This document shows, one piece after another, positions 46,863-50,810 of a DNA stretch of 64,000 bases (positions are counted from its first letter, which is position 1; every line of letters starts with the position of its first letter). Location of the stretch: contig NC_086097.1 of assembly GCF_963921235.1 (NCBI RefSeq), forward strand, positions 172,734,001 to 172,798,000, in the 5' to 3' direction. Origin of the DNA: Mobula hypostoma (lineage: Eukaryota). The notes beneath the pieces were generated by a model that saw nothing but the letters and a program-made list of their open reading frames with translations, did not search any database and was not told the DNA's origin. A program made the translations under genes and the position numbers.

Positions 46863-47570
46863 ATGATTCTCTGGCTAGTTTCTGGAGGCGGGGGGTTCAG
46901 CTATTCTCCATTCTGTTGACTCATCCTAACCATCTAGATTGACGCTTGCTTAATATGATACTTGCTATTTGGGTATACAAATAATTTATTAAGGACAGGA
47001 AAATTGATGAGTAGAAAGAAGAGAGGGAAAGATTTGAATGAAAAGCAAAGCAAGAGTAATTAAATGACACAGGTGATAACTTAAAAGGACACAGCTCTCT
47101 TCCCCTCTGCCATCGTATTCCTGAACAGTCCATGAACAATATCTTATTTGTTTTTTTGCCCTTGTCTATTAATTTTTGTAATTTATAGTAATTTCTGTGA
47201 CTTTGCACTGCATTGCAAAGCAATAAATTTCACAGTGTATGTCAGGAATAATAAACGTGGTCCTGGTTTGGACTCTCCTTGTCAATGTCCTGAGCAGTGA
47301 GCAGTACAGTGGTATTGCTAGCACAACCACTGCCTCACCTCTCCAGTAACACAGGCATCGAGTATTCTCCCAGATGAAGCTTACACATTCTGGAAAACGT
47401 GGATTTCCCCAAGATTTCTCCCATATCTCTAAGACCAATGAGTAGAGAAAGTGAGTTAATTAGCCATTGTTGCATACTCAGTATGTGGGTGGTGGTAAAA
47501 CCTGGGGTCTGTTGATGGGAATATAGGGAGAACAAAATAGAATTAGTGTAAATGCCTGCTTAACTTAAAG

Positions 47571-48783
47571 CAGCGATCCCCAACCACCGGGCCGCGGACC
47601 AGTACCGGGCCGCAGAGCATGCGCTACTGGGCCGCGAGGAAACGATATGATTTGGCGATAGGAGTCAGCTGCACCTTTCCTCATTCCCTGTCATGCCCAC
47701 TGTTGAGCCATTACGCATGCGAGGTCATTACCTGCGCGTTATCCATTTCAGCACAGGAAGAAGATCAACTCCTCGAGCTTGCAAATGACGGCGGGCTGAA
47801 GCACACAACGTCTGACACAACGTCTCTGCCGGCATTCCGGGTCAAAGTCAAGGCTGAATATCCTGAGATAGCCACGGAAGCAGTGAAAACGTTGCTTCCA
47901 TTTCCAACGTATCTCTGCAATGAATGCAATGAGAACTGAATTGCGGAATAGATTGGACATAAGGAACCCCCTTCGAGTATCGCTGTCTCTCGTCGCCCTT
48001 CGATAGCACCGTCTTGTTGCAGGAAAACAATCCCAGGGCTCCCACTGATTCAGCGATATTGGTGTGTTGCAATGATTTTATATGTTCATACGGGGAAAAT
48101 ATGTGCTGCATGTTTAATATCCAAACGATACTTAAAATGTTATGATGCTATTGACTTATATAACTATATAACAATTACAGCACGGAAACAGGCCATCTCT
48201 GCCCTTCTAGTCCGTGCTGAACACTACTCTCACCTAGTCCCGCTGACCTGCACTCAACACATAACCCTCCATTCCTTTCCTGTCCATACACCTATCCAAT
48301 TTTTCTTTAAATGATAATATCGAACCTGCCTCTACCACTTCTACTGGAAGTTCGTTCAACACTTACTTCAAGCTCCCCTGTCCTCCCCTGATAACTGACT
48401 TATCACTATATTCATGCGAGGAAAATATGCGCTGTGTGTTTAATATTAAATTCGTTAGATAAACCCTTTTAGAAACGAAATTGAGTGTATTAGCTAATTA
48501 TCACCTGTATTCCGGTCGTGATTAACACCCCCCACCCCCCCGGAAAAGAATTGCCAAAAACGATTTGTGGAAAAAAAAATCGTACACGCTTGCGCAAGTT
48601 ACGCATGCACACTGGTGCCCGCACAAGGCTTCATGGTCATTGTGGTCTTTCTCGGGGTAAACCCAGTGTATCTGACTGCTACTCTTGTCAGTTGGCAACA
48701 CCCCCCCCCCCCAGGTCGGCCGGTCCGCAAGAATATTATCAATATGAAACCGGTCCGCAGTGCGAAAAAGGTTGGGGACCCCG
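47571..48783 (+). mobile_element. Non-autonomous hAT/Charlie-type DNA transposon
   Basis: TIRs CAGCGATCCCCAACC and GGTTGGGGACCCCG; perfect 8-bp TSD ACTTAAAG (47563-47570, 48784-48791); hATC remnant EEDQLLELAND...EYPEIATEAVKTLLPFPTYLC. Confidence 0.93.
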
Positions 48784-48854
48784 ACTTAAAGCACTGACTC
48801 ACTGGGCCAAAGGGCTTGTTTCCATGCCTATGCTTTGTGACCCAGTGTTACACA

Positions 48855-49240
48855 GTTAAGAGTTAAAAATACACTTGGACTAAGATGTTAACTGTCCTGT
48901 GCTATCACCAGTGGGATCATCAGTTGATCTGCCACCTGTCTTCAGGAGTTTCGGCCCACTTATGATCAAGACTCCCTCGAGGTGGTGGGCCAGCAGTGCT
49001 AAAGCAGCACCTCCTACTGGTGAGCTTAAAAACTTGGCATCTGCCTCTATCAGTTACTTCCATCCAACAGATAGTCTACTCTTCAGGTGTCTATGCAACT
49101 ACTGAAGGGTTTGCAAGATATGTATACACTGTCTGACTATCTGCCCCTCTGGACATACTTGGTCCACACCCATGCTGATCCTTTCTCTGCTGCCTCAGCT
49201 ACAGCCCTGCTGGTTGACTTGATCTCTCTTCTAGTAAATT
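48855..49240 (-). mobile_element. Hero-clade (R2 superfamily, restriction-like endonuclease) LINE 3' fragment
   Basis: Minus strand encodes FTRREIKSTSRAVAEAAEKGSAWVWTKYVQRGR*, matching the AE.AE..S.W.W C-terminus recalled for Hero ORFs. A ~280-nt structured 3' UTR follows. Confidence 0.75.
48910..48976 (-). ncRNA. Candidate non-circularly permuted (pseudoknotted) hammerhead ribozyme
   Basis: GGGAGU C UUGAUC AUA AGUGGG CC GAA ACUCCU GAAGACAGGUGGCA GAUCAA CUGAUGA U CCCACU: three ~6-bp helices plus CUGAUGA, GAAA and a GUC triplet. Confidence 0.7.
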
Positions 49241-49699
49241 AATTCAAACATGGATTACCTTTAATAAATGTGCTGAATTTCATATGCACACTTAAGTGCT
49301 GATTAATTTGATTTCAGATTATTGTCTCAAAACATTTTCCCACCAGAACTGTGTATGTCATAAAGAGCTATAGTAGATACAAACTGAACATCCCGATTGA
49401 AGCCAGGGCATGGATGGTTAACTGAGGTACTAAAGGGATTATTTCTCAGATTGGTGGGTAGGGAGCAATGGTGCCACCAAGAGGAAAGTGCTGGGATGAC
49501 AGATCTTTCTGATATAAGAAGAAGTGTTGTGGATATAATTTTAATATGTGCAGATAAGACAAGACTCTGAAATATGCTAAATAGTGAAGAAGATCACAGT
49601 GGAGTTTCCAGAGAACATAGACAGAAATAAGACACTCTAATAAGATAATGAAAGAAGACAAAATAATGCCTTCATTCAAAACAGCACCATAGTTGGGAT

Positions 49700-50810
49700 G
49701 GTAAAAAAAGGACATTTGGTACGCTGGCCTTCAATATACACTCAGTGGCCACTTTATTAGGAGCATCCTGTACCTAATAAATTGCCCATTGAGTGTATGT
49801 TTGTGGTCTGCTGCTGCTTTAAGGTTTTTAAGGTTTGGGGTGTTGCCCATTCAGAGATGCTCTTCTGCACATTACTGTTGTAATGTGTGGTTATTTGAGT
49901 TATTGTTGCATTTCTCTCAGCTTGAAACATTCTGGCAATTCTCCTCTGACCTCTCTCACCAAAAAAACTTCTCTCAGAATTGCTTCTCACTGGGTTTTTT
50001 GTTGTTGTTTCTTGCACCATGCTCTGTGAGCTCTAGACGTGCTTAAGAATTCCAGGAGGTCAGCAGTTTCTGAGACACTGAAGTTACTCCGCTGGTACTA
50101 ACAATCATTCCACGATCAAAGTCAGTTAGATCACATTTCTTCCCTATTCTGATGTTTGGTCTGAACAACAACTGAACCTCTTGACCATGTCTCCATGCTA
50201 TTATGCATTGATTTGCTGCCACGTGATTGGCTGTTTAGATAATAATGAGCAGGTGTACCAAATAAAGTGGCCACTGAATGGAGGAGTTGAATGTCATGTT
50301 GCAGTTATACAAATGATTGGTGAAGCCACACTTAGGAGTATTCAGTATTTGGTTTTGGCCACCCTGTTATAGGAAAGGCATGGCTAAACTAGAAAGAGTG
50401 CAAAGAAGATTTACAATGATGCTGCCAGGACCAGAGGACCTGAGTTAAAGAGAGAGGTTGGCCAGGCTAGGCCGTTATTCCCTGGAATGTAGGAAAATGA
50501 AGGGCAATCTTATAGAAATATTTAAAATTATGAGGAGCACGGGTAGGGTGGACAGTAAGTCTTTTCCCCAGGGTAGAGGAGTTCAAAATTAGTGGGTATA
50601 GATTGAGGGTGAGAGGAGAAAGATTTAAAAAGGATCTGAGGGGCAATATTTTCATTCAGAGAGTGACAAGTATATGGAACAAGCTGCCAGAGGAAGTGGT
50701 CGAGGCAGATATAATAGTATCATTTAAGAAGCATCCAGATAGATACACAGAGGGGCAGAACTTAGAGGTTGAAAGGCCAAATGCAGGAAATTGGGATGAG
50801 CTTGTTAAGG
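49700..50810 (+). mobile_element. CR1-type LINE 3' fragment split by the Tc1 element
   Basis: KK..FGTLAF lies to the left of the Tc1. VMLQLYK...KDLRGNIFIQRVTSIWNKLPEE lies to the right. Confidence 0.82.
49739..50280 (-). mobile_element. Non-autonomous Tc1-like DNA transposon
   Basis: TA|CACTCAGTGGCCACTTTATTAGG ... CCAAATAAAGTGGCCACTGAATG. Minus-strand HTH remnant ERGQRRIARMFQAERNATITQITTHYN. Confidence 0.88.

Follow-up and report, generated by a model that had tools for sequence, protein, structure and literature searches.

A split-core hammerhead motif in the 3′ UTR of an RLE-type retrotransposon of Mobula hypostoma

Does the minus strand at positions 48910–48976 of the window (the whole stretch of 64,000 nt of Mobula hypostoma DNA analysed here) encode a hammerhead-type core whose strands follow each other in a non-circular order, as a sequence-only reading had proposed, and what would such an RNA do in the 3′ UTR of a retrotransposon? 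The letters and coordinates of that reading match the DNA: stem III, stem I, CUGAUGA (48917–48923), GAAA (48949–48952) and a GUC site are present and, on the minus strand, the core blocks occur in the order S-G-C. A scan for the core together with stems I and III returned one match in the whole window, namely this site, and one in 4.6 Mb of local shuffles; a scan of the same type gave no match in 230,521 minus-strand bases of 64 related loci (see below). Standard models had been predicted to miss the motif and did so, with Rfam reporting no hammerhead at E up to 10 in window positions 47500–50500 and none at the gathering score in six related loci. The motif is genuine, if bigger and odder than first described, and the RNA predicted from the sequence comprises 48905–49023, with the following parts in and around it:

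48860–49238, minus strand: 5′-truncated retrotransposon copy of 379 nt; the 3′ end differs between copies by a few bases
49137–49238, minus strand: end of the element's ORF, with its final 33 codons and the stop; this C-terminus is also found in long copies
49012–49023, minus strand: stem IV (clamp), 5′ strand; one mismatch here, 9-mer intact in 28/30 copies
48992–49011, minus strand: hairpin V, between stem IV and G10.1 and abutting both; one mismatch here
48987–48991, minus strand: stem II strand a, with G10.1 at 48991; true partner of the arm before GAAA
48980–48985, minus strand: PK a, 5′ strand of the helix joining stem I and stem II (pairing comparison)
48970–48976, minus strand: stem III 5′ strand and the UC of the GUC site; cut site by analogy
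48964–48969, minus strand: stem I 5′ strand (sequence, covariation)
48949–48957, minus strand: stem II strand b up to C11.1, followed by GAAA (G12–A15.1) (covariation)
48944–48948, minus strand: stem III 3′ strand (sequence, covariation)
48932–48937, minus strand: PK b, 3′ strand of the helix joining stem I and stem II (pairing comparison)
48917–48929, minus strand: stem I 3′ strand (48924–48929) and CUGAUGA core (48917–48923) (sequence)
48905–48916, minus strand: stem IV 3′ strand, directly after A9; previously taken for a stem II strand (pairing comparison)

By analogy, the predicted cut lies between 48970 and 48969.

The retrotransposon piece begins with the last 33 ORF codons and carries the motif in its 3′ UTR. 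Searching the window's own 3.48-Gb genome yielded 1,678 candidate copies, 40 of which were scored (96–98% identity); copies share a common 3′ end and vary in their 5′ truncation points. Long copies of ~3.85 kb contain one broken ORF with a reverse transcriptase domain (RVT_1, E = 7.7e-20), a C-terminal zinc knuckle (zf-RVT, below cut-off) and a PD-(D/E)xK-like nuclease motif identified by eye, and no GIY-YIG family was found in the three ORF pieces scanned. The best solved (PDB) relatives of a 60%-identical homologue are R2 proteins. Reverse transcriptase, nuclease motif and R2-like structures together identify it as an RLE-type non-LTR retrotransposon, in agreement with the location proposed from the sequence alone, and the unrelated flanks of its copies indicate non-specific insertion. 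The latter fits the Hero clade of non-site-specific RLE elements (PMC4640811); as "Hero" was the label of the sequence-only reading, we refer to the element as Hero-like. Target-site duplications at insertions were short and inconsistent, and the 3′ ends of insertions scattered by several bases (mode 17 among 46 ends, chance flank matches included).

The 5′ UTR, as seen in L048:1501–1620, contains three to four spaced ~20-nt repeats ending in GGAAAGAC or a close variant. Similar repeats in L098, L115, L118, L120, L123, L131, L137, L139, L142, L151 and L159 reveal conservation across distant families, and they could represent promoter or protein-binding sites. Manual inspection further revealed tRNA-like stretches just past the ORF stop (L109:3290–3338, L110:2450–2515, L135:1205–1260), that of L110 lying upstream of the motif; they could provide the 3′ UTR with a Pol III promoter. 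ARAGORN called no tRNA in 43 loci, these stretches included.

An alignment of 38 homologous proteins led to 604 relatives in metagenome contigs, the best 80 of which correspond to the 64 related loci (33–62% protein identity). When all six block orders were scanned in these loci, only S-G-C was found, and on the sense strand only. The resulting 39 motifs were reduced to 28 by dropping 11 near-duplicates. Among them, stems I and III covary, both having also served as selection criteria, and H17 is A, C or U in 28/28, which the scan required and which is hence not independent. Covariation among homologues, the check suggested for the original fold, extended to stems I and III and to a stem II with an upstream partner (described below), and failed for stem II as first drawn (48955–48960 with 48910–48915): over the 28 distinct motifs, the arm before GAAA and the bases after CUGANGA formed 2.54 bp, compared to 2.32±0.20 bp with swapped partners (p=0.16). 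Likewise, a stem II of the type described by Eckert et al., with C11.1 pairing straight after A9, reached 2 bp in only 3/28. In 30 copies from the window's genome, the base giving 6 bp in the first-drawn helix was C in 16, T in 7, G in 1 and unmatched in 6, so that the U completing it is a minority state, probably due to CpG decay. Two other candidate partners were also discarded. The conserved GG before stem I did not pair with the arm before GAAA beyond swapped controls (p=0.80) and belongs to the PK helix, and a weak tail-to-loop pairing (p=0.007) proved a post hoc artefact, the tail pairing upstream. A plain type-SGC fold, with stem II right after CUGAUGA and a U opposite CC, can be drawn for the window copy, and a few relatives allow 4–7 bp in this register. 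Given that this helix does not exceed swapped partners, depends on a minority base and uses strands with better, covarying partners upstream, we consider such a fold highly improbable.

A complement of the arm before GAAA, located further upstream, was first spotted by eye in the three families of the window's genome and in a few loci. It was tested on 35 distinct motifs, from which 12 near-duplicates and 2 motifs with short upstream sequence had been excluded and among which the distant L162, which fails, was kept. Stem II with this upstream partner comprised at least 5 bp in 33/35 motifs (own partners 5.09 vs. 3.14±0.18 swapped, p=5e-5) and held in 26 of those 27 metagenome motifs for which the upstream part had not been inspected before. 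It also disposes of the one deviation noted earlier, the U opposite CC, since a normal G10.1–C11.1 pair forms with G10.1 at 48991, beyond the range considered at the time. Two further helices emerged from the same comparison. The PK helix, formed by the bases after stem II strand a and the segment before the stem I 3′ strand, scored 6.26 vs. 3.51 (p=5e-5) and reached at least 5 bp in 30/35 motifs; stem IV, pairing the bases after A9 with sequence further upstream, scored 8.60 vs. 5.05 swapped (p=5e-5), with just 2–5 bp in 13/35 motifs when counted from A9+1. Swapped controls had the same register freedom, the p values ignore kinship among motifs, and stem II, PK and stem IV played no part in motif selection. 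Stem II, PK and the clamp (stem IV) covary. G10.1 pairs with C or U in 35/35, its position being set by best pairing. Hairpin V, assessed on 31 inserts, had a mean of −9.5 kcal/mol vs. −3.2±0.3 kcal/mol for shuffled sequences, and mostly zero bases are unpaired at the A9/IV, IV/V and V/G10.1 borders.

In an unfitted MAFFT alignment of 33 motifs, 92.7% of cells pair, as opposed to 36–41% when the alignment is slid, and 12/14 pairs vary on both sides. Unconstrained folding of a majority-type copy gave IV, V and II (z −3.06). The full descriptor matched 40 of the 44 assessable loci, the other 20 of the 64 containing too little 3′ UTR; inspection by eye of the four non-matching loci (L101, L110, L117, L145) found the motif damaged or cut off. 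The same descriptor found nothing on the 64 minus strands or in 2.3 Mb of shuffles. A chance resemblance devoid of function might be entertained because each helix is short; it is contradicted by the scan rarity, the covariation and these full-fold counts, and we regard it as vanishingly improbable. In the window copy itself, IV and V each contain one mismatch, and core, I, II, III and PK are intact. Two further families in the window's genome (L172–L177 and L178–L180) carry the split-core motif with different, compensated helices; the related protein encoded by L172 is internally deleted, and a head-to-tail junction of the kind discussed below is seen in L177. In L112, L113 and L115, U3–A8 replaces C3–G8 (UUGACAA core); decay of the core was rejected for these loci in favour of a U3–A8 variant, a covariation reported in natural hammerheads (PMC4209133). 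As separate observations, the 3′ strand of stem IV has small deletions lying between short direct repeats in 15 copies of the window's genome, recurring in a few forms, and L162:1146–1254, on a MAG contig at 28% identity, displays an S-G-C motif in which A9 is followed at once by G and stem II measures 2 bp and lacks a partner upstream; it may be either a plain type-SGC or something in between.

From 5′ to 3′, the RNA as read from these comparisons consists of IV, V, G10.1 with II a, PK a, III, the UH site, I and II b, followed by GAAA, III, PK b, I, CUGANGA and IV. Its predicted topology is that of a type-SGC hammerhead re-opened between A9 and G10.1 and clamped there by two abutting helices. 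Helices IV and V probably stack, which would place A9 beside G10.1, and known hammerheads are described as tolerating one extra base between these two positions.

Is this fold catalytic? CUGANGA, GAAA and the UH site adjoin helices in the manner of a hammerhead core, stems I, II and III occur with covariation, and the G10.1–C11.1 and A15.1–U16.1 pairs form. U16.1, G12–A15.1, CUGA and GA are invariant in 33 motifs, bearing out the core conservation that the sequence-only reading had asked for. Judging by these features, a hammerhead of unusual connectivity very probably self-cleaves here. Another reading accepts the fold as real, deriving from or resembling a hammerhead, and holds that it is not catalytic alone in vivo, serving mainly as a protein-binding 3′ UTR structure for target-primed reverse transcription. 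The motif sits where R2-type proteins bind their RNA. In addition, the 110 nt past the cut site are always kept in copies, and the RNA that was copied must therefore have been intact at that bond. Protein binding alone would, however, hardly explain the invariant core positions or the swap of C3–G8 for U3–A8, features of the kind that catalysis needs, which leaves a purely protein-binding role unlikely.

The copies themselves hold further information on how the RNA is used. A query consisting of the 5′ UTR only returned 234 candidates in the window's genome, of which 40 were scored and 30 fetched. All 30 copies with a 5′ UTR run upstream into the element's own 3′ end; this upstream piece was detected by BLAST in 28 cases (reaching >1,488 nt in 20) and by eye, at ~15–19 nt, in two. 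The head-to-tail junction has a constant length in 30/30, and none of the 30 copies stops at it. Among them, upstream pieces of 97–139 nt were lacking, so that none accumulate around the cut site, which lies 110 nt upstream. 3′ ends were sought for 27 copies, of which 7 had none in the stretch and 1 a partial one; together with five pairs from longer loci, 24 pairs could be compared. Upstream piece and own 3′ end showed 54 informative differences, compared to 101±7 for shuffled pairs (p=2e-5). This likeness persisted when L066 was left out and when either side of the cut site was taken separately; in the last 110 nt, own partners showed 23 differences vs. 43.8±3.7 for shuffled ones. Constant junction and repeat likeness together indicate that one RNA segment is usually copied twice per insertion.

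Certain pairs deviate from this pattern. Discordant repeat pairs at diagnostic sites (at least six) include L046, L045, L068, L055 and, in its last 25 nt, L066, and a 9-nt insertion renders the pairs of L039 and L041 discordant; a single circular template would therefore be insufficient unless conversion occurred later or templates were switched. Loss of 17 nt over the cut site was found twice only, at both ends of L066, vs. 923 intact-length matches, and L066 additionally has a G12-to-A change in both repeats. A circle would account for such shared changes, and a ribozyme-dead source or gene conversion would do so equally well. The cut site showed no excess of deletions (3 events, against raw counts of 0, 2 and 15 matches in the three windows used as controls), and thus no ligation-scar signal was seen. 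Related contigs are often terminally redundant, or their motif runs into 5′-UTR-like repeats, part of which may stem from collapsed assemblies. L123:85–7266 contains two units, 68% identical and arranged head to tail, each with its own motif, possibly a mixed (two-family) tandem or an assembly chimera. In run X4, one contig bridges the head-to-tail junction. The summed contig depth of the same run over L048:1387–1496 rises from ~94 to 2,700–4,100 from the cut site to the 3′ end, i.e. 30–40x over upstream; contig depth cannot rank sequence parts, and short truncated copies would produce such a rise too.

Taken as a whole, our main reading, a self-cleaving split-core hammerhead that feeds a circular RNA template, has in our estimate a probability of about 0.5. 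A transcript begun upstream of a partial-tandem copy would be trimmed to unit length by cleavage at each of its two ribozymes; the 5′ and 3′ halves of the motif share ~28 bp (IV, II, PK, III), through which the unit's ends would pair again and be joined into a circle by the ribozyme or by an RNA ligase of the host. The element's protein would then prime reverse transcription ~110 nt downstream of the cut site and pass more than once round the circle, such that long insertions become partial tandems carrying two ribozymes again. Tentatively, at odds just short of even, this may apply to a whole clade of autonomous RLE-type LINEs whose RNA would be cut, rejoined into a circle, primed inside and rolled past unit length. 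The circle is attractive because it explains the constant junction, the absent 5′ end and the conserved ribozyme together, and a circular RNA template has already been proposed for Penelope-like elements (PMC4209133). Strong pairing between the cleavage products could, on the other hand, block the strand exchange that circularisation needs.

The main rival to the circle retains an active ribozyme and gives it a simpler task: it would only free the element RNA from upstream read-through or tune RNA level or translation, while the reverse transcriptase, at the 5′ end of one RNA, jumps to a 3′ end, either of that RNA or of a second one. According to PMC6765202, which also cites a title on continuous synthesis by the R2 reverse transcriptase on non-continuous templates, retrotransposon ribozymes are usually assigned the task of release from co-transcripts. 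Discordant repeat pairs would be natural under jumping, as would the possible two-family tandem in L123. Less easily accommodated are the 0/30 copies that stop at the junction, the lack of any upstream piece of 97–139 nt among them and the junction's constant length despite variable 3′ ends, for which jumps would have to be near-complete and exact. Moreover, the likeness measured above for the last 110 nt would not survive homologous transfer within the 110-nt terminal repeat. We therefore rate template jumping as possible rather than likely. Circle and template jump as origins of the partial tandems can now be tested directly. If true, the circle would explain insertion as partial head-to-tail repeats and mean that LTR-like terminal repeats can be made without the LTR mechanism; should the R2-related protein indeed prime on circular RNA, it would be of interest for gene-insertion tools.

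The viral contigs searched contained no relative, and prokaryote genomes yielded 12 loci, mostly short and probably contaminants. L160, L161 and L169, short contigs in bacterial assemblies with pieces 41–52% identical to the retrotransposon protein, are probably eukaryotic contamination. A different, abundant palindromic repeat (L181, G000:C1:82697300–82697650, and many further matches) holds a minimal type I-like core of conventional order in both arms, with CUGACGA, a short hairpin and GAAAC, and resembles Penelope-associated motifs. Within the window, a palindrome at 49734–49800, for which Rfam gives a mir-9256 match below threshold on either strand, likely represents the joined ends of a small DNA transposon, and a broken reading frame at 47547–47939 (plus strand) seems to resemble the C-terminus of a hAT-type transposase.

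How does the motif relate to hammerheads and retrotransposons described before? In types I, II and III the blocks follow a circular order, which the window motif does not. The rearranged hammerheads mentioned in the sequence-only reading turned out to be type-SGC, the S-G-C order of HRIMA-1 and its variants (Eckert et al. 2023, PMC10085705), a term found in this one paper only in the literature searched. Type-SGC RNAs are reported there to cleave in vitro and, as far as the paper's accessible text goes, none came from the genomes of known organisms save one bacterial type-GCS candidate. The scheme presented in the same text treats CUGAnGA and its adjacent paired bases as contiguous, with block C uninterrupted, and its descriptors demand CUGAUGA(U)G, i.e. 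CUGAUGAG or CUGAUGAUG, where the window reads CUGAUGAUC. Block order is common to both; in type-SGC, according to these passages, the stem II strand follows CUGANGA or one U, whereas here that strand lies together with PK a on the 5′ side, and helices IV and V, lacking in type-SGC, are added. Type-SGC motifs were found in metatranscriptomes and attributed to viroid-like RNAs, while those described here reside in chromosomal retrotransposons. As judged from sequence comparison, the connectivity lies outside the published six-permutation scheme and would be a seventh hammerhead connectivity. A CUGANGA block separable from stem II contradicts the stated assumption of an unbroken block, and a split core clamped by programmable helices is of interest to ribozyme engineers. 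Non-circular hammerheads would move from anonymous metatranscriptome contigs into chromosomes, with ~1,700 candidate copies in one genome, and into dozens of related families; Rfam models miss the motif and published descriptors cannot match it.

A pseudoknot (PK) hammerhead with pistol-like connectivity was reportedly described by Weinberg in 2015, and Zebulon is said, after Bouneau et al. in 2003, to have a partial tandem structure. The literature searched did not report the split-core connectivity (PMC13725137, PMC3088659, PMC13580325, PMC7650587, PMC2684134 and bioRxiv 10.64898/2026.07.22.740005, in the portions available, were included); these two earlier works, supplements and subscription journals may describe it, as may the supplement of PMC10162972, which PMC13725137 cites for hammerheads with additional helices. 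Likewise, listings and the beginnings of abstracts in this literature mentioned no ribozyme in Hero elements, and the replication mode considered above is possibly new for LINEs. As in our motif, the PK hammerhead structure (PMC11300833) combines a hammerhead core with an extra helix IV and a pseudoknot. There, however, A9 and G10.1 lie in one short stem-loop and a loop–loop pseudoknot takes the place of helix II, whereas the split-core motif has a full 5-bp stem II and extra helices between A9 and G10.1; the wiring given in the available text of PMC11300833 and PMC12192606 differs accordingly.

Among retrotransposons, Penelope-like elements and retrozymes share a hammerhead in a repeated end and partial head-to-tail copies with the present element (PMC4209133). 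Their hammerheads are described as type I, often minimal and dimeric, and are accompanied by a GIY-YIG endonuclease or no protein; ours is a monomeric fold, complete and non-circular, and belongs to an autonomous RLE element. R2, the source of the closest solved proteins, likewise combines self-cleaving RNA with an RLE-type element, yet its ribozyme is HDV-like, sits in the 5′ UTR and frees R2 from the rRNA transcript (PMC6765202), while the predicted hammerhead places a ribozyme in the 3′ UTR of R2-related elements; moreover, R2 is site-specific and the window element inserts non-specifically. In this last respect the element is like Hero and Zebulon of fishes, a non-site-specific RLE clade (PMC4640811).
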